From positions 32,421 through 96,420 of the forward strand of contig JAAXUC010000004.1 in assembly GCA_013336225.1 (NCBI GenBank): a stretch of DNA of 64,000 nucleotides, written 5' to 3'. Origin of the DNA: Candidatus Moraniibacteriota bacterium (GTDB taxonomy: Bacteria > Patescibacteriota > Minisyncoccia > Moranbacterales > GWC2-37-73). The translations under genes were made by a program, and so were the position numbers. The notes beneath the pieces are model-generated. The model was given only the letters and a program-made list of their open reading frames with translations, was not told the DNA's origin and searched no databases. This document shows positions 3,835 to 58,012 of this stretch, piece by piece; the first letter of the stretch is position 1; the number at the start of each line of letters is the position of its first letter.

Positions 3835-3907
3835 GCCACCCTAGCTCAACGGTAGAGCTACTGTTTTGTAAACAGTAGGTTATCGGTTCAAATCCGGTGG
3901 GTGGCTC
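3835..3907 (+). tRNA. tRNA-Thr (anticodon UGU)
   Basis: Manual cloverleaf: acceptor GCCACCC/GGGTGGC, D-stem GCTC/GAGC, anticodon stem ACTGT/ACAGT with loop TTTGTAA, T-loop TTCAAAT. Confidence 0.85.
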
Positions 3908-4020
3908 ATAAATGGAAAATTTCGAATTATGAATTTTGAATTTCGAATGAATTGTTGATGTTTTAAACATTTTGTCATTGGAAATTTTTTAAAAATTAAA
4001 AATTGGAAATTGAAAATTTG
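3908..4020. repeat. AT-rich intergenic repeat module (cgaattatgaattttgaatttcgaat ... ttttaaacatt)
   Basis: The cgaattatgaattttgaatttcgaat block is shared with 60212-60245; the spacer between the two tRNAs also contains aaaatt/gaaatt repeats. Confidence 0.5.
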
Positions 4021-4043
4021 AGCCCGTAAGGGCGATGCATTTC

Positions 4044-4126
4044 GGGTAGTTACCAAAGCGGTCAACTGGATCTGGCTGTAAACCAGACGGCGTAAGCCTT
4101 CGGGGGTTCGAGTCCCTCACTGCCCA
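4044..4126 (+). tRNA. tRNA-Tyr (anticodon GUA, long variable arm)
   Basis: Acceptor GGGTAGT/ACTGCCC, anticodon stem TCTGG/CCAGA with loop CTGTAAA, long variable arm CGGCGTAAGCCTTCG, T-arm GGGGG-TTCGAGT-CCCTC. Confidence 0.85.
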
Positions 4127-4139
4127 CATATGATATTTT

Positions 4140-4170
4140 AAAGACACCCTTTTGGGTGTCTTTAAAATTT
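4140..4170 (+). terminator. rho-independent terminator (aaagacaccc-tttt-gggtgtcttt + A/T tail)
   Basis: Perfect 10-bp stem immediately 3' of tRNA-Tyr. Confidence 0.6.
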
Positions 4171-4178
4171 TATTTGTA

Positions 4179-4400
4179 GTGGGCAGTGAGGGACTCGAAC
4201 GGGTCGAAGTGAGCTAGAAATTTTCAGTAGAAAATTCGCAGCGAACGCCGATGAATGAGAGCGTGCGAGCATTCAGCGCGACCCTGGGCAAGGAGCGAAG
4301 GCGACGCGTAAATCCCTCACTCTTTGTGCAGTGAGGAACTCGAACCGGCAGAAGCGAGCATTAAGCAAAGGCGAGATGGGTGCAGGAATATGACTTAAAT
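4179..4400. repeat. tRNA-Tyr-linked repeat: two inverted copies of the tRNA-Tyr 3' end (4179-4200 and 4332-4356) flanking a conserved core (cgatgaatgagagcgtgcgagcattcagcgc...ggcaaggagcg)
   Basis: 4179-4200 gtgggcagtgagggactcgaac is the exact reverse complement of the tRNA-Tyr T-arm/acceptor 3' end; the core is near-identical to cores at 57657-57700 and 57846-57890. Confidence 0.7.
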
Positions 4401-4494
4401 ACGTGATATTTCAGCTATGGACAAAAATCCAATAAAGCCTTATACTGCTTGATAGTTGCTGATTTCAGTATCTAATCCATATCGCTACCAAAAT

Positions 4495-4567
4495 GCCGTT
4501 GTAGCTCAGTTGGTAGAGCACATCCTTGGTAGGGATGAGGTCTGCGGTCCGATTCCGCACAACGGCT
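4495..4567 (+). tRNA. tRNA-Thr (anticodon GGU)
   Basis: Acceptor GCCGTTG/CAACGGC, anticodon stem CATCC/GGATG with loop TTGGTAG, T-stem TGCGG/CCGCA with atypical T-loop TCCGATT. Confidence 0.8.
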
Positions 4568-4686
4568 CAGGTTTGATAAATTAAAAGATTTTAAAATAAG
4601 TTTCTATTTTCATTGTTTTAAGCCAGAAACAAATGAACATATGAACTAATGACAATTGTATGGCAACAAAGACAAAGGAGAATTTA

Positions 4687-4824
4687 GTGAAACTTAAATG
4701 CAGTGAATGCAAAGAGATCAACTATTACACTTCAAGAAATAAGAAGAAGATCAAAGAAAAGCTTGAGCTCAACAAGTATTGCAAAAAATGTCGCAAGCAC
4801 ACTGAACATAAGGAAATGAAATAA
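4687..4824 (+). CDS. rpmG: 50S ribosomal protein L33
   Basis: Below the 60-aa ORF-track cutoff. [45 protein letters not shown] aligns with B. subtilis L33 (CTECGERNYISKKNK...KKYC). GTG start at 4687 sits 6 nt after AAGGAG; an in-frame ATG at 4660 would add 9 aa. Confidence 0.85.
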
Positions 4825-4832
4825 CCTTTAAA

Positions 4833-4858
4833 GGGGCGGGTTTTCCCCGCCCCTTTAT
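4833..4858 (+). terminator. rho-independent terminator (aaaggggcggg-tttt-cccgcccctttat)
   Basis: GC-rich 10-bp stem plus T-rich tail directly after the rpmG stop. Confidence 0.6.
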
Positions 4859-4862
4859 ATTT

Positions 4863-4933
4863 GCGGGATTCGTATAGTGGTAGTACGTCGGTCTCCAAAA
4901 CCGTTGGCGTAGGTTCGATTCCTACATCCCGTG
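4863..4933 (+). tRNA. tRNA-Trp (anticodon CCA)
   Basis: Acceptor GCGGGAT/ATCCCGT (G1-U72 wobble), anticodon loop CTCCAAA, T-arm GTAGG-TTCGATT-CCTAC. Confidence 0.8.
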
Positions 4934-5096
4934 CATGCAGCAATAAAAACAGATACTTAATTAAATTAGGTACCTGTTTTTATTTATTGTTAACATTCTT
5001 TTTTTGTATCAGTTTATTTTGATTATATTTTGTTTGGATAATATGCTAGGATGAATTTTGGGTGAATTATTCTAAGAAAATATCAAAATAAAAATA

Positions 5097-6455
5097 ATGA
5101 AAAAAATATTGGCAATCGGTTGTGGAGGAGCTGGCATGTTCAGCGGCATTGTTGCAACTCAGCTCAAAAAAGAAAAATTTGAGGCCATTGCACTTTCTGA
5201 GGAAGCTGACATCTATTGTCGTTGCAGCACCCCTTATGTTTTGACGGGGGAAGCCAAGCTGGCAGATGCGATTCAATCTGACAGCATGGCTGGAGATTAT
5301 GGTGTCAAGGTTGTGCATGAAAAAGCCTTGAAAATAAACACTAATAAGAAAGAGGTCTATACCGACAAGGGAAATACTTTCGAGTATGATTATTTGGTTA
5401 TCTCCACTGGTGCAACTCCCGTTAGCCCAAAAATAAAGGGTATAAATCTTGAAAAAATATATACAGTCAGAACCAGCAACGACGTTGAAAAAATCAAAGC
5501 GACACTTGGAAAAGCCAAAAGCGCTCTTGTTATTGGCGCTGGTGTTATTGGAATTGAAATGGCTGGATCTCTTGCCGCCAATGGTTTGGAAGTGGTTTTG
5601 GTTGAAGCAAATTCTTCGATTTCAAATAGTCTTGCTGATTTGGAATTTTCTGAAAAAATCACTAAGCATCTGCAGGCAAATAAAATTGAAGTTCTTTTTA
5701 ATACCAAGGTTTCTGAAATAAAGGAAAATAAAACGAAACAAAAAGAGATTGCTGTGGTGACCAATCGCAAAAAAAGAATCATTACAGCTGATTTGATTGT
5801 TGTGGCGGCAGGCGTGAGGCCTAATTTAGATGTAATTGCTGGCACGAAAATCAAAGCCAATGAAAAGGGAATCATTGTGGATGACAGAATGCGAACTAAT
5901 ATTGCCGATGTCTATGCCTGTGGAGATTGCTGTGTGTCTCCCTCGGCAATTACGGGAGAACTGAGACCTAGTCCATTGGCCAGTACTGCCATTCAGCAAG
6001 CCAAGATTGTTGGATTTCAAATTGCTGGTTTTCCGATAAAATATAACGGCTCAACAGGAGCTTTTGCTTTTCAAACGCTGGGCAAAGAATTTGCAGGTGT
6101 GGGACTCACTGAAACAGAAGCGCGCAAAAAATTCAAATGGGTGATAACTGGAACAGCCATGACCACTGATATTTATAAGGATTTGACGGTGGCAAAAGAT
6201 CTTGAAGTTAAACTCATCTTTGCAGGACCAATGATGAGATTGGTTGGATATCAAGCCTTTGGAAATGGGGTGATTGCTTCGGCTGAGGTTGCAAGTTTTG
6301 CAATTGGGCTGCGTTTGAACATTTTGAAAATGCTGAAATTTAATTATATCGCACATCCCAGTATGACAGCTTGGCCTTTTATGAATCCAATCATCATGGC
6401 CACGGAAGATGCGATGAGCAAGATTATGGAAAAAGTGAAAAGATTTTTCAAGTAA
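5097..6455 (+). CDS. FAD-dependent pyridine nucleotide-disulfide oxidoreductase, NADH oxidase/CoA-disulfide reductase-like (single active-site Cys type)
   Basis: N-terminal FAD Rossmann KILAIGCGGAGMFSG, Cys42-like YCRCSTPYV, second Rossmann ALVIGAGVIGIEMAG, C-terminal FAD motif DVYACGDC. Confidence 0.75.
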   Translation: MKKILAIGCGGAGMFSGIVATQLKKEKFEAIALSEEADIYCRCSTPYVLTGEAKLADAIQSDSMAGDYGVKVVHEKALKINTNKKEVYTDKGNTFEYDYLVISTGATPVSPKIKGINLEKIYTVRTSNDVEKIKATLGKAKSALVIGAGVIGIEMAGSLAANGLEVVLVEANSSISNSLADLEFSEKITKHLQANKIEVLFNTKVSEIKENKTKQKEIAVVTNRKKRIITADLIVVAAGVRPNLDVIAGTKIKANEKGIIVDDRMRTNIADVYACGDCCVSPSAITGELRPSPLASTAIQQAKIVGFQIAGFPIKYNGSTGAFAFQTLGKEFAGVGLTETEARKKFKWVITGTAMTTDIYKDLTVAKDLEVKLIFAGPMMRLVGYQAFGNGVIASAEVASFAIGLRLNILKMLKFNYIAHPSMTAWPFMNPIIMATEDAMSKIMEKVKRFFK

Positions 6456-6751: not shown

Positions 6752-7960
6752 TTAAGACTCTTTGATTTCAGCAATGCGTTCAAAAATGGCATTGCAGCGG
6801 GCAGCATAATTCAGATTTTCTCCAATGCCGGCAATTTTTTGAGCAAAGATTTTGCGCTTGTTTTCTTCATTAATAGGAATAAGTAGTGATTTGCCTTTCA
6901 TGATTTTGCTTTTTTCATTCAGGTGATTGTGCGCAAGCAAAGCAGGCAAATTCATATGATATTTCTCAGCAATTTTTCCCAGCGTTTCTCCTGCCTTGAT
7001 GGTGTGCAAAAGATTTTTGCTGTTTTTGATTTCACTGCGCGTGTCATTGGCAAGATCGGAAAGATGAGACAAAAAACCTTCAAAAGTGATCACTTCTCCA
7101 TGCTTATATGCTCCATTGAGATATTTCCAAGCAAAGCCACCATTATAGGCTGAAAGCGCAATGTTCCAATCCTGGGAAACTTTGTAGAGATCTTTGAGTA
7201 GCTTGGCCGCAGCTTGGCCGCTGCGCAAAGCGTTGGTGCGCTCATCATTTTTTCCATTGACTTTCAAGCCATATTTTTTTCCAGTGTCGGCAGTGATTTG
7301 ATACGGTCCCACAGCGCCCACGGGGGAATGCGCATCAAGCTTGAAATGCGATTCAGGAATGGCAAGATAGGCCAGATGCGCTGGGATTCCTTCTTTGATG
7401 AAAATATCTTTAAGTTTATTTTCCCAAGGCGCCATTCTTTTGAGTCCAGAGCTGAGCGAATCTTTTAAGTTGGGATTTTCTTTATATCCATCTTTCCAAT
7501 ATTTTTTCAAACTCGCCGTGGTTTCCTGATCAAAAGCAAATTTTCCTGGATGATCATAATCCAGCACTTGAGCAATTGAAAGACTTTGTTGTTCTTGCTT
7601 GGGTGTCGTTTCAACCTCACTTTTTTCAACTGCTGCGGCACTTTCTTTCGTTTGCTCTGAAGTTACTTCTTTGGCGGCTGTAAATTTTTGAAACAATTTC
7701 AAAAGTTGCGATGCTGGCTTGGTTTGACTGGCAATGGCGGTGCCCAAAATGGCAGCGCCACCCAGCAGAAACATCCGCCTTTGCTTGTCAGCAACTTCAT
7801 CATCCAAATCAATGACATCATCCTCAATTGAATTATATGAATTGCTTTGTTGCTCCTTTTTGCCTAACCATTTCAAAAGATTGAATGATTTTTCTTGAGC
7901 GTTGTTTTGATTTTTGATTGAAGATATCTTGGGCGCAAAATCTTTTTCCATGATGTTCAT
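6752..7960 (-). CDS. lytic transglycosylase (SLT domain) with C-terminal LysM domain; N-terminal TM anchor
   Basis: SLT-like HSPVGAVGPYQI...LSAYNGG block; LysM-like IKAGETLGKIAEKYHMNLPALLAHNHL...LLIP; TM helix MFLLGGAAILGTAIA. Confidence 0.75.
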   Translation of the reverse strand: MNIMEKDFAPKISSIKNQNNAQEKSFNLLKWLGKKEQQSNSYNSIEDDVIDLDDEVADKQRRMFLLGGAAILGTAIASQTKPASQLLKLFQKFTAAKEVTSEQTKESAAAVEKSEVETTPKQEQQSLSIAQVLDYDHPGKFAFDQETTASLKKYWKDGYKENPNLKDSLSSGLKRMAPWENKLKDIFIKEGIPAHLAYLAIPESHFKLDAHSPVGAVGPYQITADTGKKYGLKVNGKNDERTNALRSGQAAAKLLKDLYKVSQDWNIALSAYNGGFAWKYLNGAYKHGEVITFEGFLSHLSDLANDTRSEIKNSKNLLHTIKAGETLGKIAEKYHMNLPALLAHNHLNEKSKIMKGKSLLIPINEENKRKIFAQKIAGIGENLNYAARCNAIFERIAEIKES

Positions 7961-9926: not shown

Positions 9927-11297
9927 ATGGAAGAAAAAAAGGTGACAAAAATGGAAGACATTGTTTCATTTTGCAAACGCAGGGGATTTGTTTTTCCAAC
10001 TTCAGAAATTTATGGAGGATTGGCAAATTCATATAGCTATGGTCCGTATGGGGCAGAGTTGAAAAATAACATCAAGAAAATGTGGTGGAAAAAATTCGTG
10101 CAAAAGCGCGAAGATGTGGTGGGCATGGATGGTCCAATTTTGCTCAACACGAAACTTTGGGAAGCTTCTGGTCACATTGGAGGTTTCAATGATGCTTCAG
10201 TTGATTGCAAAAAGTGCAACAAAAGATTTCGAGCTGATCATGTGGTGAAGGAACTGACTGGAGAAGACATGGAAGGTGAACTGGAAAAGATGACCGCAAC
10301 TTTGCAGGCTGGGCTTAAATGTCCTGAATGCGGAAAATCTGATTGGACCGAGGTGCGCAACATGAGTCAGATGTTTCAAACAGAAATGAATGGGGTGGAT
10401 GGACCGATCTATCTTCGTCCGGAAACAGCCGGAGCAATTTTTTCTGACTACAAGAACGTGGTTGATTCAATGCGCGTGAAAATTCCTTTTGGAATTGCGC
10501 AAATTGGAAAAGCTTTTCGCAATGAAATTGTGGCGAGAAATTTCATTTTCAGAATTCGAGAATTTGAACAAATGGAAATTGAATATTTCATCGAGCCAGA
10601 AGCGAAGTGGGAAGCAATGTTTGAAAAGTGGTTGGATGAGCAGGAAGAATTCGCACTTTCGCTTGGTGCTAAAAAAGAAGATTTGAGGCGCTATGAACAT
10701 CCTAAAGCAAAGCTCTCACATTATTCCAGAAAAACTGTGGATACTGAATATAATTTCCCCTTTGGATTTGGCGAATTGTTTGGCTTGGCGCATCGTGGTG
10801 ATTTTGATTTGACACAACATTCGAAATTTTCAGGACAAAAACTTGATTATTTTGATGCAGCTGCCAACAAGAGATATGTTCCACACGTGCTTGAGCCAAC
10901 CGTTGGTTTGGATCGTTTAATTTTGACAACCATCTGCGCAGGTTATACTGAGGAAAAATTGGAAGATGGTGAGCGCATTGTGATGAAGTTTCCCAATGCA
11001 GTGGCGCCAATCAAAGTGGCGGTTTTCCCACTGATGAAAAACAAGCCAGAACTTGTTTCCAAGGCCAAAGAAATTTTTGGAAATTTGAGTGAAGATTTCA
11101 TGTGCGAGTTTGATGATAATGGAAATGTTGGAAAACGTTATCGTCGCCAAGATGAAATTGGAACTCCATATTGCGTGACTGTTGATTTTGAAACACTTGA
11201 AGATGGCGCCGTCACCGTGCGCGACCGCGACACCATGAAACAGGAGCGAATCAAAATTTCCGAGCTGCAAACATTCTTCGCAGAGAAATTGCGATAA
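9927..11297 (+). CDS. glyQS: glycyl-tRNA synthetase, alpha2 dimeric type
   Basis: MEDIVSFCKRRGFVFPTSEIYGG...YGPYG N-terminus, class II motifs (FRNEI, GLDR), anticodon-binding C-terminus. The second ATG at 9951 has the better SD. Confidence 0.9.
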   Translation: MEEKKVTKMEDIVSFCKRRGFVFPTSEIYGGLANSYSYGPYGAELKNNIKKMWWKKFVQKREDVVGMDGPILLNTKLWEASGHIGGFNDASVDCKKCNKRFRADHVVKELTGEDMEGELEKMTATLQAGLKCPECGKSDWTEVRNMSQMFQTEMNGVDGPIYLRPETAGAIFSDYKNVVDSMRVKIPFGIAQIGKAFRNEIVARNFIFRIREFEQMEIEYFIEPEAKWEAMFEKWLDEQEEFALSLGAKKEDLRRYEHPKAKLSHYSRKTVDTEYNFPFGFGELFGLAHRGDFDLTQHSKFSGQKLDYFDAAANKRYVPHVLEPTVGLDRLILTTICAGYTEEKLEDGERIVMKFPNAVAPIKVAVFPLMKNKPELVSKAKEIFGNLSEDFMCEFDDNGNVGKRYRRQDEIGTPYCVTVDFETLEDGAVTVRDRDTMKQERIKISELQTFFAEKLR

Positions 11298-20868: not shown

Positions 20869-22110
20869 ATGAAACAATCACAACTATTCACCAAAACTAA
20901 AAAAGAAGCTCCATCAGATGAGGTGGCCAAGAACGCGCAACTTTTGATTCGCGCCGGTTTTATTCACAAAGAAATGGCTGGAGTGTATGCATATATGCCG
21001 CTTGGTCTGCGAGTGCTGGAAAACATTAAGCGTATTGTTCGCGAAGAAATGAATGCTGTCGGCGGTCAGGAATTGATGATGACAACCTTGCAACCCAAAG
21101 AAATTTGGGAGAAGACTGGTCGTTGGGATGATGCCAAGGTGGATAATTGGTTCAAGACTAAATTGGTTAATGGCACAGAACTTGGAGTGGGACTGACTCA
21201 TGAAGAACCAATTGTTGATGCTGTTAGCAACTATCTCAATTCATACAAGGGCATGCCATTTTCAGTGTATCAAATTCAGAATAAATTTAGAAATGAAAAA
21301 CGGGCCAAGAGCGGAATTTTGCGTGGACGCGAATTTTTGATGAAAGATATGTACACATTTTGCAAAGATCAAGAGCAGCATGAGCAGGAATATGAAAAGA
21401 TTGTGGCTGCATATCATCGTGTTTATGCGCGCCTAGGGTTGGGGGAAATCACATATCGCACCTATGCTGATGGAGGAATTTTCACGCCTCGTTTTAGCGA
21501 TGAATTCCAAACACTCACTGAGGTGGGAGAAGATACGATTTATGTTGATGAGAAAAAACGAATTGCAATCAATGAGGAAATTTTGACGGATGAGAACTTG
21601 AAAAAACTCGGCCTTGATCGCAATGATCTTGTGGCGAAAAAAGGCGTTGAAGTCGGAAACACTTTTCATTTGGAAAGCAAATATACTGACGCATTGGATT
21701 TGTTCTATATTGATGAAAAAGGTGAAAAGCAATCAATTTTGATGGGATGCTATGGAATTGGAGTTAGTCGCTTGATGGGAGTTGTTGCGGAACTTTTTTC
21801 TGATGACAAGGGCTTGGTGTGGCCGGAAAATGTTGCGCCGTTTGCTGTGCATCTTTTGAGTCTTGGACAAGATGAAGAAACTGAAAAAATTTGCATCGAA
21901 CTTGAAAAAAACGGAATTGAAGTTTTGTTTGATGATCGCGACGCACAGGCTGGTGCAAAATTTGCCGACTCAGATTTGATTGGAATTCCATGTCGAGTGG
22001 TTGTTAGTAAAAAATCTTTGGCTGCTGGGGGACTTGAAGTGAAAATGCGAAATGAAAGTGAAAGCAAGATTATGACAGTGGAGGAATTGTTGCAAATGCT
22101 AAAAAAGTAA
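20869..22110 (+). CDS. proS: prolyl-tRNA synthetase, short form lacking the INS editing domain
   Basis: N-terminus MKQSQLFTKTKKEAPSDEVAKNAQLLIRAGFIHK...GVYAYMPLG parallels bacterial ProRS; class II motifs and anticodon-binding C-terminus present. At 413 aa there is no room for the ~180-aa insertion domain. Confidence 0.85.
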   Translation: MKQSQLFTKTKKEAPSDEVAKNAQLLIRAGFIHKEMAGVYAYMPLGLRVLENIKRIVREEMNAVGGQELMMTTLQPKEIWEKTGRWDDAKVDNWFKTKLVNGTELGVGLTHEEPIVDAVSNYLNSYKGMPFSVYQIQNKFRNEKRAKSGILRGREFLMKDMYTFCKDQEQHEQEYEKIVAAYHRVYARLGLGEITYRTYADGGIFTPRFSDEFQTLTEVGEDTIYVDEKKRIAINEEILTDENLKKLGLDRNDLVAKKGVEVGNTFHLESKYTDALDLFYIDEKGEKQSILMGCYGIGVSRLMGVVAELFSDDKGLVWPENVAPFAVHLLSLGQDEETEKICIELEKNGIEVLFDDRDAQAGAKFADSDLIGIPCRVVVSKKSLAAGGLEVKMRNESESKIMTVEELLQMLKK

Positions 22111-22543: not shown

Positions 22544-25483
22544 ATGCAATTCAAGAAAGTAGATGCAAGAAAAAAATATTCAGAAATGGAGAAAGAAATA
22601 ATTCAATTTTGGAAAGATGATGGAACTTTCCAAAAATCCATTGAGCAAAAAAAAAATAATAAATATTTTAGTTTTTATGATGGTCCACCATTTATTACTG
22701 GTGTTCCACATTATGGAACATTGTTATCCTCTATCGTGAAGGATGCTGTTCCTAGATATTGGACAATGAAGGGATATCGTGTTGAGCGTCGATGGGGATG
22801 GGACTGTCATGGTCTTCCAGCTGAAAATATGGTGGAGAAGAAATTGGGAATCAAAAATAAACGTGAAATTGAGGAAAAAGTTGGTATTGCTACCTTTGTC
22901 GAGGAATGCATTAAGGAAACATCTCAAATTGCCTCTGAATGGGAAACTGTTATTGATAGAGTTGGTCGCTGGGTGGAGTTTAAAAATGCATACAAGACGA
23001 TGGATAAGAATTATATGGAATCCGTATGGTGGGCATTTTCGCAGCTTCACAAAAAAGGATTGATTTATGAAGATGTGAGAGTATCGCTATATTGTCCTAG
23101 ATGTTCAACGCCTTTATCAAATTTTGAAATTGCGATGGATAATAGCTATGAGATGGATAGTGATCCTTCAGTATATGTAAAAATGAAGATAAATGGTCAA
23201 GAAAATTCATATTTCTTGGTTTGGACAACAACTCCATGGACACTACTTGCTAATGTGGCCTTGGCTGTTGGCGGCGATATTGACTATGTTAAAGTTAGAT
23301 ATAATGATAAAAATGGCAATCCTGAATTTTTTATACTAGCTAAGAATGTATATGAGAAAAGAAGAGACGATTTTTTCCCTGGTGTTAAGAATCTTGGGCC
23401 AGATGAAGTTCCTCCAGTTGCATCAGAAATAGTTGAAGAATTTAAGGGCAATGATTTATTGATTAAGGAGTATGAATCAATATTCCCACATGAAATCGAA
23501 AACGGATATAAAGTAATTGCGGCAGATTTTGTTACAACTGATGATGGTTCGGGGATTGTGCATATCGCTCCAGCATTTGGAGAGGATGATTTTCAAGTTA
23601 GAAAGTCCAATGATTTACCAATAATCATGAATGTTAATGAAGAAGGTCAATTTACTGATGGACTATGGAGTGGACAGAAAGTTTGGGATGCTAATAATGA
23701 GATAGTTAAATGGCTCAAGGAAAACAATATACTTTTTAAGCGCGAACAGATTACACATAGTTACCCCCATTGTCATAGGTGTCATACAAAGCTTATTTAC
23801 AAAGCACAACCAGCTTGGTATGTGAATGTTTCAAAAATTCGTAAAGATTTGATTGCGGAAAACGAAAAAATAAATTGGTTTCCTGAATTTTTAAAACATG
23901 GTCGTTTTCAAAATGGTATTGAAGGTGCTCCAGATTGGAACATTTCTCGTGATCGTTATTTTGGAACAGCAATTCCAGTTTGGAAATGTGATGAATGTGA
24001 TGAAATGAAAGTTTTTGGGTCCTATGAAGAATTGAAAAATGCCTCTGGTATTGAGCTTGACGACTATCATCGTCCAAAGGTTGACGATGTTACTTTTGCT
24101 TGTGAAAAATGTCACGGTAAAATGAAGAGAATACCGCAAGTTTTTGATTCTTGGATTGAATCAGGCTCAATGCCGTTTGCTCAATTTCATTATCCATTTG
24201 AAAATAAAGAGGTTTTTGAAAAGAGTTTTCCTACGGACTTTATTTCAGAATATATTGCCCAAACAAGAGCTTGGTTTTATGTGCTGCACGTTCTTTCTGT
24301 GGGAATTTTTGGAAAAATAAGTTTCAAAAATGTTGTAACAACAGGAACAATTGCTGGAAATGATGGAAAAAAGATGTCAAAATCACTGGGGAATTATACG
24401 CTGCCCGATGTCGTTTTAGAGCAATACAGCGCTGATGCACTTCGACTTTATCTTTTGTCTTCACCGCTACTCAATGCTCAAAATATTAGTTTTTCAGAGA
24501 AATCCATACAAGATATTCAAAGAAAGGTATTGTCAACGCTTTGGAACAGCTATGCTTTCTTTACTCTCTATGCTGATGTTGATAAGTGGACGCCAAAAAA
24601 TAATGCTGGTTCTCCAGCCGATTCTGATAATCTTTTGGATCTTTGGATCGTGTCTGAGCTAAACAAGCTTATTAGAGAGGTTGATACTAATATGGAAGCA
24701 TACGAATTAGTAAAAGCAATCAGACCCTTTGAGAATTTTGTTGATAACTTATCAAACTGGTATATTCGTCGAAGTCGTAAACGTTTTTGGCGAAGTGAGA
24801 ATGATGATGATAAAGGCAATGCGTATCAAACCTTGCACTATGTGTTAGTTACTCTTTCAAAAATAATGGCGCCATTTGCACCATTTATATCTGAAGAGAT
24901 TTATAAGAATTTAACCGGATTGGAATCTGTTCACTTGGAAGATTTTCCTATTGCTGATGCAAAAAGAATAGATGAGGAACTGAACAACAATATGAGTGAT
25001 TTGCGTGAAATTATAACAATAGGTTTGCAAGATCGCGCAAAAAACAAAATTAAGGTTAGACAACCGTTGAGTGGAGTTTTTCTTGGTCAGAAATATAGTA
25101 AAGTCTTCAATGAAACTATAAACAAGCCAGAGTGGAGTATTATTTTAACAGAAGAGTTAAATGTGAAAGGTGCAACACTTGGAACCGAAACGGAAACTGT
25201 AGCAATTGATTCAAATATTACTGCAGAGCTTAAGCTTGAGGGTCAGGCAAGGGAAATCGTTCGTTATATCCAAGAAATGCGTAAGGAGGCTGGTTATGAA
25301 GTTGATAACCATATTATTGTGGGTTATTCCGGGGTAGAGGAAGTCTTTAATGAATTTGGAGATCTTATATCTAGGGAAATATTAGCGGATAAAATACAAT
25401 CTAATAATTTGCCCGAATATGACTTACAAAAAGAGTTCACATTTGATGAGAAAGTGTTTTCAATTACAATAAAAAAACTGTAA
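22544..25483 (+). CDS. ileS: isoleucyl-tRNA synthetase
   Basis: Class I HIGH-region variant PHYGT, KMSKS (KKMSKSLGN), CP1 editing domain and Zn-binding C-terminus; 979 aa. Confidence 0.95.
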   Translation: MQFKKVDARKKYSEMEKEIIQFWKDDGTFQKSIEQKKNNKYFSFYDGPPFITGVPHYGTLLSSIVKDAVPRYWTMKGYRVERRWGWDCHGLPAENMVEKKLGIKNKREIEEKVGIATFVEECIKETSQIASEWETVIDRVGRWVEFKNAYKTMDKNYMESVWWAFSQLHKKGLIYEDVRVSLYCPRCSTPLSNFEIAMDNSYEMDSDPSVYVKMKINGQENSYFLVWTTTPWTLLANVALAVGGDIDYVKVRYNDKNGNPEFFILAKNVYEKRRDDFFPGVKNLGPDEVPPVASEIVEEFKGNDLLIKEYESIFPHEIENGYKVIAADFVTTDDGSGIVHIAPAFGEDDFQVRKSNDLPIIMNVNEEGQFTDGLWSGQKVWDANNEIVKWLKENNILFKREQITHSYPHCHRCHTKLIYKAQPAWYVNVSKIRKDLIAENEKINWFPEFLKHGRFQNGIEGAPDWNISRDRYFGTAIPVWKCDECDEMKVFGSYEELKNASGIELDDYHRPKVDDVTFACEKCHGKMKRIPQVFDSWIESGSMPFAQFHYPFENKEVFEKSFPTDFISEYIAQTRAWFYVLHVLSVGIFGKISFKNVVTTGTIAGNDGKKMSKSLGNYTLPDVVLEQYSADALRLYLLSSPLLNAQNISFSEKSIQDIQRKVLSTLWNSYAFFTLYADVDKWTPKNNAGSPADSDNLLDLWIVSELNKLIREVDTNMEAYELVKAIRPFENFVDNLSNWYIRRSRKRFWRSENDDDKGNAYQTLHYVLVTLSKIMAPFAPFISEEIYKNLTGLESVHLEDFPIADAKRIDEELNNNMSDLREIITIGLQDRAKNKIKVRQPLSGVFLGQKYSKVFNETINKPEWSIILTEELNVKGATLGTETETVAIDSNITAELKLEGQAREIVRYIQEMRKEAGYEVDNHIIVGYSGVEEVFNEFGDLISREILADKIQSNNLPEYDLQKEFTFDEKVFSITIKKL

Positions 25484-35095: not shown

Positions 35096-36511
35096 ATGCA
35101 GCGAACAAATATTGTCGACACACCTAAGTTTATTGGACAAACTGTCAAATTAGCAGGCTGGGTTCACATTCGTCGTGATCACGGAAAGTTGATCTTTGTG
35201 GATTTGCGCGATCGCAGTGGAATCATCCAAACCGTGATCATTCCTGATCACGTGGAAGCGCATGACAATGCTAAAAGACTGCGCAGTGAGTTTGTGATTG
35301 AAATGGAAGGATTGGTCAAAGAACGTCCCATGAGTGCTAAGAATGAAAAATCAGTCACTGGGGGAGTTGAGCTGGAAGTGACTTCAATCAACATTTTGAA
35401 TGAAGCAAAAAACACCCCATTTGAAATTTCCAAAGACACTAAGGAGGTTGATGAGAAATTGCGTTTGAAATATCGCTATCTCGATTTGCGCAGCGAACGA
35501 ATGCGAGATAATATTTTGACTCGCTATAATGTGATTAAATTCTTCCGAGATTTCTTGGGGGAGCAAGGTTTTATTGAAGTTGAAACTCCAATTTTGGGCA
35601 AAACCACTGCTGAAGGTTCAAGGGATTATGTGGTGCCATCACGAATTTATAAGGGAAAGTTTTATGCGCTTCCACAATCACCGCAACAATACAAACAATT
35701 GTTGATGGTGGCTGGAATTGAAAAATATTTTCAAATTGCCAGATGTTTTCGCGACGAAGACACTCGCGGTGATCGTCAACCAGAATTCACTCAATTGGAC
35801 ATGGAAATGAGTTTTGTGGAGCAAGAAGATGTGATGAATGTGGTGGAAGAAATGCTCATTAAGCTTGTGCAAACTCAATTTCCTGAAAAGAGAATTCAGT
35901 CCATTCCATTTCCACGCCTCACCTACAAGGAATCCATGGAAAAATATGGCAATGATAAACCAGATATTCGCGAAGACAAGAATGATCCAAATCTGCTCGC
36001 TTTTTGTTGGGTGGTGGACTTTCCGTTCTTTGAAAAAGATGAAGAATCTTCAACTGGTTGGACATTCACTCACAATCCTTTTTCTCGTCCAAAACCAGAA
36101 TTCATGGAGCAATTGATGAACAAAGAAAACATCGCTGAGATTTTGACCACACAATATGACATCGTGCTGAATGGTTATGAAGCTGGCGGGGGAAGCATTC
36201 GAAATCATGAGCCGAAAGCGCTGCGCAAGGTTTTGGAAATCATGGGAATTTCAGAAGAAAATGTGCAACGAGATTATGGACATATGTTGGAAGCTTTCAA
36301 ATATGGCGCTCCACCGCACGGAGGAATTGCGCCAGGAGTTGATCGCTTGGTGATGATTCTGCGCAATGAGCCAAACATTCGCGAAGTGATTGCTTTTGCA
36401 AAAACAGGGGAAGCTGAAGATCCGATGATGGAAGCTCCAAGTGTGCTGGATGAAAAACAACTCATTGAGGCTGGCATTAAAATTGTCACCAAAAAGAAAA
36501 AAGTTGTCTAA
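35096..36511 (+). CDS. aspS: aspartyl-tRNA synthetase, short form without the GAD insertion
   Basis: N-terminal OB fold; class II motif 2 FRDEDTRGDRQPEFTQLDMEMSF; motif 3 GGGSIRNH; C-terminus GAPPHGGIAPGVDRLVMIL. Confidence 0.85.
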   Translation: MQRTNIVDTPKFIGQTVKLAGWVHIRRDHGKLIFVDLRDRSGIIQTVIIPDHVEAHDNAKRLRSEFVIEMEGLVKERPMSAKNEKSVTGGVELEVTSINILNEAKNTPFEISKDTKEVDEKLRLKYRYLDLRSERMRDNILTRYNVIKFFRDFLGEQGFIEVETPILGKTTAEGSRDYVVPSRIYKGKFYALPQSPQQYKQLLMVAGIEKYFQIARCFRDEDTRGDRQPEFTQLDMEMSFVEQEDVMNVVEEMLIKLVQTQFPEKRIQSIPFPRLTYKESMEKYGNDKPDIREDKNDPNLLAFCWVVDFPFFEKDEESSTGWTFTHNPFSRPKPEFMEQLMNKENIAEILTTQYDIVLNGYEAGGGSIRNHEPKALRKVLEIMGISEENVQRDYGHMLEAFKYGAPPHGGIAPGVDRLVMILRNEPNIREVIAFAKTGEAEDPMMEAPSVLDEKQLIEAGIKIVTKKKKVV

Positions 36512-57349: not shown

Positions 57350-57463
57350 GGGGAAATAGCTATAAAGTTTATAAAGTTTGAAAGTCCATAAAGCGGTCTG
57401 AATATTGTCTTGTTGACTTAATTTTCATTTCAGATATAATTAATATCGTTGACTTAATAATTC

Positions 57464-57536
57464 GGGCACATAGCTCAGTTGGTAGAGCAGCGGCCTTTTA
57501 AGCCGATGGTCGGGGGTTCGAATCCCTCTGTGCCCA
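57464..57536 (+). tRNA. tRNA-Lys (anticodon UUU)
   Basis: Acceptor GGGCACA/TGTGCCC, anticodon loop CTTTTAA, T-arm GGGGG-TTCGAAT-CCCTC. Confidence 0.85.
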
Positions 57537-57549
57537 CATATGATAATTT

Positions 57550-57580
57550 AAAAACACCCTTTGGGGTGTTTTTAAATTTT
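57550..57580 (+). terminator. rho-independent terminator (aaacaccc-tttg-gggtgttttt)
   Basis: Immediately 3' of tRNA-Lys; same architecture as the tRNA-Tyr terminator. Confidence 0.6.
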
Positions 57581-57586
57581 TATTAG

Positions 57587-57970
57587 AGGCACAGAGGGAT
57601 TCGAACGGGCAGAAGCTAAGCAAATTGTTTTTCAGCAGAAAAGCAATGCGGCGTGCGTCGATGAATGCGAGGAATACGAGCATTCAGCGCTGCCCAGGAC
57701 AAGGAGCAAGTGAGCGACGGCGAACGAGCGACGCGTGACAGACTGTGCCCACAAAGAGAAAAATCCCTATTGGGGATTTTTTTGTCTTTGTGCACAGAGG
57801 GATTCGAACCGGCAGGAGTGAGATATGAGCGAAGGCGAATAATCGAACGCCGATGAATGAGAGCGTGCGAGCATTCAGCGCTGCCGCGGGCAACGAGCTG
57901 TCAGCAGACAGTGAGGCGGAAATCCTTTGTCTAAATTGTACACACAGAGGGATTCGAACGGGCAGGAGTT
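57587..57970. repeat. tRNA-Lys-linked repeat array: three inverted copies of the tRNA-Lys 3' end (57589-57612, 57790-57815, 57939-57966) interleaved with the conserved core (cgatgaatg[a/c]gag..cgagcattcagcgctgcc)
   Basis: cacagagggattcgaac is the reverse complement of GGTTCGAATCCCTCTGTG; cores at 57657-57700 and 57846-57890 are near-identical to the core at 4247-4290 in the tRNA-Tyr locus. Confidence 0.7.
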
Positions 57971-57971
57971 T

Positions 57972-58012
57972 AGATAAAAAAAGAAGTCCATTGGATTTAC
58001 CAATAGGACTTC
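57972..58012 (-). terminator. rho-independent terminator for the minus-strand 58039..58284 gene (agaagtcc-attggatttaccaat-aggacttct, T-run on minus strand)
   Basis: A7 at 57972-57978 on the plus strand equals a T-run after the hairpin in the minus-strand sense. Confidence 0.5.

Follow-up and report, generated by a model that had tools for sequence, protein, structure and literature searches.

The genes for tRNA-Tyr and tRNA-Lys in a 64,000-nucleotide stretch of a Candidatus Moraniibacteriota genome (the whole stretch is called the window here) are each followed by copies of a structured repeat unit whose two arms reproduce the 3' end of the adjacent tRNA gene, one in inverted and one in direct orientation. 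At the DNA level, the tRNA 3' end is triplicated in the order forward, inverted, forward. The arms are not part of the core that travels between loci but match the local tRNA gene. The explanation that we favor, at about an even chance, is that the unit is a non-autonomous, structure-constrained repeat of tRNA 3' flanks that is amplified in tandem and shuffled by conversion, and that the adjacent tRNA gene serves, at the DNA level, as the template of its arms.

Units of the window and their locus-matched arms

The tRNA genes of the window were called with ARAGORN and Rfam, and the inverted and direct copies were located with a repeat finder. Alignment of the pieces gave three full units and two stumps, all on the plus strand. 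In the list below, helix names refer to the fold described in the next section.

4044-4127, plus strand: tRNA-Tyr(GTA) (ARAGORN; Rfam 51.4 bits)
4106-4127, plus strand: copied segment X of tRNA-Tyr, from G53 to one base beyond the discriminator
4128-4178: AT-rich, palindromic spacer containing the intrinsic terminator hairpin of tRNA-Tyr (4135-4168)
4179-4322, plus strand: Tyr_u1, full unit
4179-4200, plus strand: 5' arm of Tyr_u1, GTGGGCAGTGAGGGACTCGAAC, reverse complement of tRNA-Tyr 4106-4127 at 22 of 22 positions
4201-4311, plus strand: core of Tyr_u1 (cmsearch 115.7 bits; covariation)
4201-4206 (GGGTCG) with 4279-4284 (CGACCC): P2 of Tyr_u1
4217-4237: hairpin A of Tyr_u1
4249-4257 with 4270-4278: P4 of Tyr_u1
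4285-4295: junction strand of Tyr_u1, TGGGCAAGGAG, followed by a short hairpin B
4312-4322, plus strand: 3' arm of Tyr_u1, ATCCCTCACTC, a partial direct copy, which takes in the 3' strand of the T-stem and the beginning of the acceptor strand
4325-4386, plus strand: Tyr_u2, stump with an internal deletion (nhmmer match at 4325-4373; repeat finder)
57464-57537, plus strand: tRNA-Lys(TTT) (ARAGORN, Rfam), with its segment X at 57516-57537
57545-57578: palindromic terminator hairpin of tRNA-Lys
57588-57753, plus strand: Lys_u1, full unit (cmsearch 111.1 bits)
57588-57606: 5' arm of Lys_u1, inverted copy of 57516-57534 at 19 of 19 positions
57607-57612 with 57690-57695: P2 of Lys_u1
57659-57668 with 57680-57689: P4 of Lys_u1
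57743-57753: 3' arm of Lys_u1, CTGTGCCCACA, direct copy of the acceptor 3' strand
57757-57783: bidirectional terminator-like hairpin between Lys_u1 and Lys_u2, found on both strands
57789-57931, plus strand: Lys_u2, full unit (cmsearch 129.9 bits)
57789-57810: 5' arm of Lys_u2, 95% complementary to the tRNA-Lys end
57810-57815 with 57881-57886: P2 of Lys_u2
57851-57859 with 57872-57880: P4 of Lys_u2
57898-57911: hairpin B of Lys_u2
57922-57931: decayed 3' arm of Lys_u2, ATCCTTTGTC, with G·U pairs on the plus strand
57941-57975, plus strand: Lys_u3, stump of 5' arm and GGGCAGGAGTTTAGAT only (nhmmer, repeat finder)

The first-pass annotation, made from the letters alone, had described an exact inverted copy of the tRNA-Tyr end behind the terminator hairpin, and the repeat finder reproduced it at full length. 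The second inverted copy that it placed at this locus is real, being 91% complementary to the tRNA-Tyr end (TGTGCAGTGAGGAACTCGAACC, the 5' arm of Tyr_u2), but it lies at 4325-4346, and the string quoted for it lies at 4329-4351, not at 4332-4356. After this arm, GGCAGAAGCGAG is fused straight to CATTAAGC and a remnant. The terminator palindrome of tRNA-Tyr has 24-nt arms that are 88% complementary and is terminator-like on the plus strand, and the whole of 4106-4200 forms a 95-nt quasi-palindrome centered on the spacer. The 3' arm of Tyr_u1 pairs with 4186-4194 and has the lineage-specific A at tRNA position 66.

The tRNA-Lys gene is preceded by a promoter-like TTGACT-16-TATAAT at 57413-57440, and the third inverted copy of its end, in Lys_u3, is exact over 17 of 17 positions (57943-57959). 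The core hairpin CGATGAATG-N-GCATTCAGCGC occurred three times in the window (4249-4279, 57659-57690, and 57851-57881) and in none of 100 shuffled sequences, in agreement with the earlier claim that the Tyr and Lys loci have a core in common. The units are 53 to 55% G+C in a genome of about 38% G+C.

Relatives of the units were collected with the exact P4-hairpin pattern over 185,579 species genomes, which gave at least 118 loci; the true relatives among the matches were those with CTGCCCNGGACAAGGAG following. For the copy count, the pattern scan was combined with nhmmer and with a 26-unit covariance model, and at least 58 copies in 41 sources, including the window, were found. Related loci and their sources are labeled with L-numbers (for example, L017). 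The units were about 130 to 180 nt long, with one to six units per locus, and many were truncated. Tandem arrays of three to six units were found in L060, L071, L032, and L035.

On the strand of the tRNA, a unit reads as an inverted copy of tRNA positions 53 to 73, the core, and a direct copy of tRNA positions about 59 to 73. At 26 or more independent junctions, a tRNA gene lay on the same strand 18 to 60 nt upstream of the unit, and at least seven kinds of tRNA preceded units (Glu, Gly, Lys, Pro, Gln, Tyr, and Leu). The inverted copy ended at the complement of G53 in all cases, the junction reading ATTCGAAC followed directly by GGGCAG, and the direct copy at the 3' end of the unit began near tRNA position 59, after GACGAAA.

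An exact inverted copy (10 to 23 nt) of the last 24 nt of the tRNA was found no more than 130 nt away in 25 of 26 core-bearing tRNAs, against a maximum of 7 nt in the upstream control. This extended to the family the earlier claim that each locus copies the 3' end of its own tRNA. Most tRNAs of the same genomes had no inverted copy, and among 36 Patescibacteria tRNAs without a recognized core, the inverted match was at most 8 nt in 31. Three of the five exceptions had variant or type B units (see below), and the other two, tRNA-Trp (L038) and tRNA-Asn (L104), had matches of 9 to 10 nt.

The arms depended on the locus and not on the lineage of the core, and one core subfamily carried different arms. 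The core behind tRNA-Gln(CTG) in L033 is 94.6% identical to that of Tyr_u1, yet its arms are of the Gln type, and in the L071 array two core subfamilies alternate with identical 22-nt Gln arms. Compared with L087 and L038, the Tyr arms of the window show the substitutions of their own lineage (G59 and A66), and the arms of L038 show those of L038. Among the three readings offered by the first-pass annotation, a repeat templated by the tRNA end fits these results best.

In tRNAs with a G·U pair in the T-stem, the two arms agree with the 3' strand of the tRNA, and therefore the left arm is genuinely an inverted copy and does not descend from the tRNA 5' half. A left arm made of tRNA 5' strands (a tRNA lacking positions 8 to 48) was rejected, as the arm of the G49·U65 tRNA-Gly UCC is ATGGG, which complements the 3' strand, not GTGGG; the reverse-complemented T-loop also contradicted this origin. 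The units represent just tRNA positions 53 to 73 in two orientations. ARAGORN and Rfam, searched to an E value of 10, showed no tRNA or tRNA pseudogene (RF00005) in the units and called only five true tRNAs. ARAGORN found no transfer-messenger RNA (tmRNA) in the window, and a 5' partner for the T-stem is missing from the unit.

An array of three units with arms of the tRNA-Gly type, in L035 (4128-4640), lacks an adjacent tRNA gene; the open reading frame (ORF) upstream of it matches AbiTii (Pfam PF18864).

Fold, covariation, and strand

RNAalifold was run on 31 units with the arms trimmed to 12 nt. It gave a closing stem, P2 (GGGCAG/CUGCCC), P3, P4, and hairpin B. The closing stem consists of tRNA positions 59 to 66 together with UCG/CGA, which the palindromic T-loop contributes, and contains an AA bulge. 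Within P2 lie two hairpins, one formed by P3 with hairpin A and the other by P4; after P2 come a junction rich in purines, hairpin B, and GACGAAA, the whole being a three-way junction closed by two tRNA-derived arms and palindromic T-loop bases.

Paired cells made up 93.9% of the total, compared with 81.3% in shuffled alignments (0 of 500 as high) and about 40% when the partners were slid. Both sides had changed at 18 of 32 pairs, including 4 of 6 in P2, and hairpins A and B kept their pairing with highly variable sequence and length. Since tRNA positions 67 to 70 were paired in just about 35 to 50% of the units, a complete acceptor/T mimic is not constant across the family. Two L030 units (4597-4766 and 7777-7948) are near-identical save for the hairpin A stem, in which about 7 of 10 base pairs differ and both stems are perfect; the second unit adjoins a decayed tRNA-Pro 3' remnant.

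On the plus strand, the supported pairs contained 44 G·U cells compared with 20 A·C cells (15 versus 5 when counted by pairs), with 9 of the 44 G·U cells stemming from one column. The unpaired segments of this strand are purine-rich (AGAAGCGAG, GGACAAGGAG, and GAGGACGAAA), and GA/AG juxtapositions recur beside helices. The G·U excess and the purine-rich unpaired segments moderately favor the strand of the tRNA. Because of the covariation and the G·U excess, the element is probably read as RNA in the direction of the tRNA or folds as single-stranded DNA of plus sense. Selection on the fold of the plus strand is shown in part, and its RNA may benefit either the cell or the element alone.

The first-pass annotation had also suggested a structured RNA from the minus strand with a T-arm/acceptor mimic. 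The structured part of this suggestion stood, through the covariation; the minus strand did not fare as well, and the full mimic is not general. A functional minus-strand RNA would end in a copy of the tRNA T-loop, T-stem 3' strand, and acceptor 3' strand. Consistent with such an RNA, the most exact copy (G53 to 73/74, with an intact T-loop) would lie at its 3' end, followed by a terminator with a T-run, and the minus strand of Tyr_u1 had the better folding z-score (-3.6 versus -1.0). However, the G·U pairs of the plus strand would turn into A·C mismatches, the unpaired segments would be pyrimidine-rich, and no T-arm can form on this strand because a T-stem 5' partner is missing. ARAGORN and Rfam showed no tRNA-like or tmRNA gene there, and the z-score advantage was absent in Lys_u2. 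We therefore regard a minus-strand RNA as very unlikely. As a strand test, single-sequence folding z-scores were uninformative, since they differed between units.

A promoter scan of the loci found weak sites only, inside palindromic terminators, and none that was convincing before the units; the terminator-like hairpins that bracket the units are bidirectional. One weak promoter-like match, AAGACA-16-TAAAAT (9/12), lies within the tRNA-Tyr terminator at 4141-4168 on both strands, and on the plus strand its start would fall a few bases from the first base of Tyr_u1 (4179). Neither a hammerhead core nor a box C/D or integron attC motif was seen by eye.

The main alternative to the favored explanation is that the unit is the gene of a small RNA, or that its RNA is processed from tRNA read-through, and that the closing helix imitates the top half (acceptor/T) of the adjacent tRNA. 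Such an RNA might be handled by tRNA enzymes, among them RNase P, the CCA-adding enzyme, the cognate synthetase, and EF-Tu, or might act as a decoy or sponge for factors recognizing this tRNA, with the three-way-junction core as payload. The covariation and G·U excess on the tRNA's strand, the conserved purine-rich junctions with their GA/AG juxtapositions, the retention of units at the syntenic Tyr and Lys loci, and the conserved unit next to the decayed pseudo-tRNA all agree with this idea. So does a full 12- to 14-bp acceptor-plus-T stack reaching the discriminator in some units, at times with CCA and a terminator (L040, L014, L043, and L065); the L043 unit encodes a CCA that its tRNA gene does not. 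Other results fit a small RNA gene poorly. The acceptor part is unpaired in many units, and the end of the inverted copy varies, sometimes running past position 73. Many units are truncated, and the copy number ranges from 1 to 6. The direct copy runs into non-tRNA trailer and terminator, which is a signature of DNA duplication and not a requirement of an RNA. The units are preceded by strong terminators and not by convincing promoters, and core-only relatives occur in unrelated contexts, one of them in frame in an ORF. On balance, we consider a small RNA gene possible but doubtful. If the RNA is functional, it would represent an unannotated, multi-copy, tRNA-linked RNA class that Rfam lacks and that occurs in six or more named candidate lineages.

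Proposed copying of the tRNA 3' end at the DNA level

The direct copy often continues past the tRNA into the trailer and terminator. In L038, a direct repeat of about 68 nt covers the tRNA end, CCA, trailer, and terminator; the direct repeats of other loci measure 47 nt (exact, L017), about 70 nt (L001), and 51 nt (L044), and L069 has a perfect tandem period. Because the direct copy extends in this way, the locus can be written as tRNA(..X), terminator, inverted X, core, X, terminator. Coreless inverted copies are essentially absent, so the core is probably required for inverted copying. Spontaneous palindrome extension without the element was rejected, since coreless tRNAs are essentially without inverted copies. 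A retro-origin, in which a mature tRNA is copied as at a primer-binding site, was also rejected, as the inverted copies stop at variable points and contain no complement of CCA; group II introns are reportedly absent from Patescibacteria (PMC13011429).

Synteny showed that the Lys units are orthologous to a single unit of L017 and the Tyr units to a single unit of L087, and hence that copy number differs between relatives. At these loci, the window has 2.2 units compared with 1 for Lys and 1.5 compared with 1 for Tyr.

Under the favored explanation, the arms would be copied at the DNA level when the core is installed or duplicated. A candidate route is replication template switching, or recombination, at the hairpins that bound X (the T-arm and the terminator), with the near-universal T-loop sequence serving as homology. 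Arrays may then grow or shrink through unequal exchange between direct repeats, and gene conversion may shuffle cores among loci. If selfish, the unit would be a compact repeat that spreads without an enzyme of its own by means of the near-universal T-loop and the tRNA-end hairpins, and it would account for places where the assembly of these metagenome-derived genomes breaks and for what look like "pseudo-tRNA" fragments in them. Despite their tiny genomes, Patescibacteria tolerate introns and odd insertions in RNA genes (PMC13011429).

Several observations weigh against this explanation. No transposase or other engine is known for the element, and the mobility of the core is read from its distribution alone, because no filled-versus-empty insertion polymorphism was seen. 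The candidate template-switch route would require several switches. Over 26 junctions, the identity of X to inverted X (80%) was no better than that of the terminator palindrome (77%), so active maintenance of the arms is unproven, and the idea that the arms are kept better than neutral neighbors was overall unsupported. Since an exact P4-hairpin pattern served to collect the family, P4 looks more conserved than it is. Finally, single copies show signs of selection like those of RNA genes: the unpaired junction bases are deeply conserved, stems can be hypervariable yet perfectly paired (L030 units 1 and 2), a well-kept unit stands beside the decayed tRNA-Pro remnant of L030, and units are retained at the syntenic Tyr and Lys loci.

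We put forward more tentatively that the unit is a new kind of element with target-templated arms. In such an element, the tRNA segment from T-loop to 3' end would be copied both ways on installation, and the RNA would be a mimic of the tRNA top half with a conserved three-way-junction domain, processed or recognized by tRNA-handling enzymes. If true, this would be a new mechanism of mobility without an element-encoded enzyme or a new tRNA-linked small RNA class of reduced-genome Patescibacteria. Either way, whether the unit is selfish or a functional RNA, the locus-specific inverted and direct copies of tRNA ends pose a testable question on templated sequence copying.

From G53, by way of the terminator, up to the 5' junction of the unit, the sequence is one quasi-palindrome of 59 to 101 nt, about 80% symmetric over the 26 junctions. 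Another conceivable role of the inverted copy is a cis action on the tRNA operon, in which it forms an extended hairpin of 80 to 100 nt with the tRNA end and terminator and the core is accessory. Such a hairpin might give stronger or insulated termination, or might switch read-through pre-tRNA toward RNase III-type processing or decay. The continuity of the palindrome, the bidirectional terminator-like hairpins around the units, and the constant orientation and spacing of the units relative to the tRNA are consistent with this function. It would, however, leave unexplained the covarying core, the direct copy, the arrays, and the units without a tRNA (L035 and L030 unit 2); antisense pairing with the tRNA 3' half would compete with tRNA folding; and most tRNAs of the same genomes do without such a hairpin. 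A role of this kind is unlikely.

Another suggestion of the first-pass annotation had been scars at tRNA att sites, left when elements integrate and excise repeatedly, which would call for an integrase. The T-loop is a classic crossover site of tRNA-integrating elements. The units have their junction in the T-loop, and on either side of them the tRNA 3' end with its trailer and terminator is repeated directly, as attL and attR would be; these direct repeats are a real att-like trait. The tRNA-adjacent copy is inverted, the insert is a geneless, noncoding stretch of about 150 nt in place of an integrase-encoding element, and one core occurs at seven or more kinds of tRNA with locus-matched arms. 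No match was found among viral contigs in the pattern scan. The search for a tyrosine recombinase near other copies, which the annotation had proposed, came out negative: no tyrosine or serine recombinase was seen near 12 arrays or among the 29 largest ORFs of the window. These results make att scars most improbable.

We then compared the unit with known systems. It shares with Rickettsia palindromic elements (RPEs) and other small non-autonomous repeats, such as MITEs (miniature transposable elements with inverted repeats), repetitive extragenic palindromic (REP) sequences, and enterobacterial repetitive intergenic consensus (ERIC) sequences, a length of about 100 to 150 bp, multiple dispersed copies, self-pairing, the lack of coding capacity and of a nearby transposase, and intergenic sites beside or within RNA genes. 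Presence in frame in protein genes is a hallmark of RPEs (PMC10969869), and one in-frame copy was found here (L051). The hosts here belong to another phylum than those of RPEs. Unlike the RPE, MITE, REP, and ERIC classes, the unit has terminal inverted repeats that are copied from the adjacent tRNA and not element-specific, a flanking "target duplication" of 10 to 70 nt that includes an inverted copy, and an interior that is a covarying three-way junction and not a simple palindrome. The characteristic terminal inverted repeats of a MITE are thus lacking, as the termini vary by locus and equal the local tRNA end; a target-site duplication of fixed length is likewise lacking, the flanking direct repeats being about 10 to 70 nt long and including the terminator. 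REP sequences and bacterial interspersed mosaic elements are imperfect palindromes of 20 to 40 nt with a conserved 5' tetranucleotide and a REP-associated tyrosine transposase, and they differ from the unit in size and in its three-way-junction architecture. Integron attC sites (RYYYAAC ... GTTRRRY, recombined by IntI) do not fit on inspection: the junctions here are TTCGAAC and GACGAAA, GTTCGAA misfits GTTRRRY, and no integrase was seen. We place the element with the small palindromic repeats, with locus-templated inverted and direct arms as a new feature. We know of no precedent for such arms, and a full-text search of the literature found no description of such a repeat.

The RtT RNA of E. 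coli tyrT (RF00391) comes from repeats arranged in tandem in the 3' portion of a tRNA operon, and every repeat has a copy of the upstream tRNA-Tyr 3' end; these repeats are transcribed with the tRNA and processed, and their copies are direct only, at one tRNA, in enterobacteria. Tandem repeats behind a tRNA with a direct 3'-end copy are found here also. In contrast, the units have an inverted copy in addition and are unrelated in sequence, and the RF00391 covariance model gave no match at its gathering threshold or at E values up to 10.

ODIRA (origin-dependent inverted-repeat amplification) produces inverted triplications via replication template switching at short inverted repeats and is known for kilobase-scale yeast amplicons that contain a replication origin (PMC11790251). 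The likeness lies in three copies with the middle one inverted (X, inverted X, X) and in hairpin junctions, here the T-arm and the terminator. The unit differs from ODIRA in that the segment is 20 to 70 nt and a conserved foreign core, which is probably needed, sits at the T-loop junction.

The att repeats of tRNA genes resemble the unit in the direct duplication of the tRNA 3' end around an insert and in the T-loop junction; they differ in that the unit has no integrase nearby, an insert of 150 nt, an extra inverted copy, and many kinds of tRNA per core. The tRNA-like domain of tmRNA and minihelix mimics have in common with some units a helix of 12 to 14 bp of acceptor on T-stem, a discriminator end, and sometimes CCA, with a large domain standing in for the rest of the tRNA; in most units the acceptor part is, unlike in these mimics, poorly paired, and neither a T-arm nor an analogue of the D-loop was shown in the units.

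Host range, displaced copies, and neighborhood

The core, for which the first-pass annotation had proposed a search in other genomes, was widespread in Patescibacteria (the candidate phyla radiation), to which nearly all hosts among the matches listed belong; its absence elsewhere, which would have counted against the annotation's claim, is thereby contradicted. The host lineages are Moranbacteria (Moraniibacteriota), the Parcubacteria group, Paceibacterota, Falkowbacteria, Buchananbacteria, and Kerfeldbacteria; a few further copies lie in metagenome bins of doubtful label. A metagenome scan gave seven loci, two of which were already in the family set. No Rfam family matched the units at the gathering threshold or at E values up to 10 as a real family, the matches in this range being generic long-hairpin (miRNA-precursor) models on the palindrome of tRNA, terminator, and arm. 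Genome-scan matches in Poribacteria, Bradyrhizobium, and similar genomes were an unrelated repeat or chance. Metagenome-assembled genomes of Poribacteria contain an unrelated multi-copy repeat, CCCGATGAATGCCACACGCGCATTCAGCGTTGATTCGCAAAAAC, which is spread over the chromosomes and matches the pattern by chance (L002, L003, L009-L012, L015, L026, L034, L055, L057, L062, L067, L074, L077, L078, and L091).

Copies of the core alone (P2-P3-P4) were present outside tRNA 3' flanks, namely between dnaK and dnaJ, within pseudo-tRNA fragments, and inside a gene for a GT4 glycosyltransferase. The dnaK-dnaJ spacer of L124 (1850-2160, minus strand) has two such copies with conserved non-tRNA flanks of their own (CCUCCCCC-UUACGAA-GGGGGUC ... 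GGAGGGGGUC). The module lies in the D-loop of a partial tRNA-Asn copy in L104 (7480-7620) and in a pseudo-tRNA-Asp in L025 (6030-6240; D-loop or variable region), each directly upstream of the intact gene. In L051 (about 7075-7185), it is in frame within the GT4 glycosyltransferase ORF, where it encodes ...RDGQKRAKRESMNATIGAFSAAQER... and the frame stays open; the match to Pfam Glyco_transf_4 (N-domain) ends just before the insert in this single case.

A second core, type B (GGGTATTCTAGAAAGCGAACGATTTCGCTTTCTAGAAACCC TGGCTCC...GGAGGAGGA), has the same tRNA-Gly-derived inverted and direct arms and shares arrays with the main type. Copies were found in L065 and L035 and at the following positions:

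L004, about 5100-5175, minus strand: type B copy
L052, about 5350-5470: type B copy
L092, about 6170-6300, minus strand: type B copy

The neighbors of the window units and of the 12 arrays are unrelated and mostly housekeeping genes (RRF, M50 peptidase, DnaX, Fmt, a SulP transporter, a BNR protein, and one AbiTii). Neither an integrase, transposase, or reverse transcriptase was found in the 29 largest window ORFs or beside these arrays, nor was a parent insertion sequence or transposase with the same ends found in the window or beside the arrays.

The tRNA cluster at 3835-4934 of the window reads Thr(TGT), Tyr, the units, Thr(GGT), and Trp, in an order identical to that of L087. In E. coli, glyT sits between the corresponding Tyr and Thr genes, at the place of the units in the window. 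Four aminoacyl-tRNA synthetase genes lie within the 64 kb (9927-11297, 20869-22110, 22544-25483, and 35096-36511), two of them class II (G/H/P/S/T type), one class I (I/L/M/V type), and one of the D/K/N type. The other window ORFs that we tested are ordinary housekeeping genes, as expected of a small genome.

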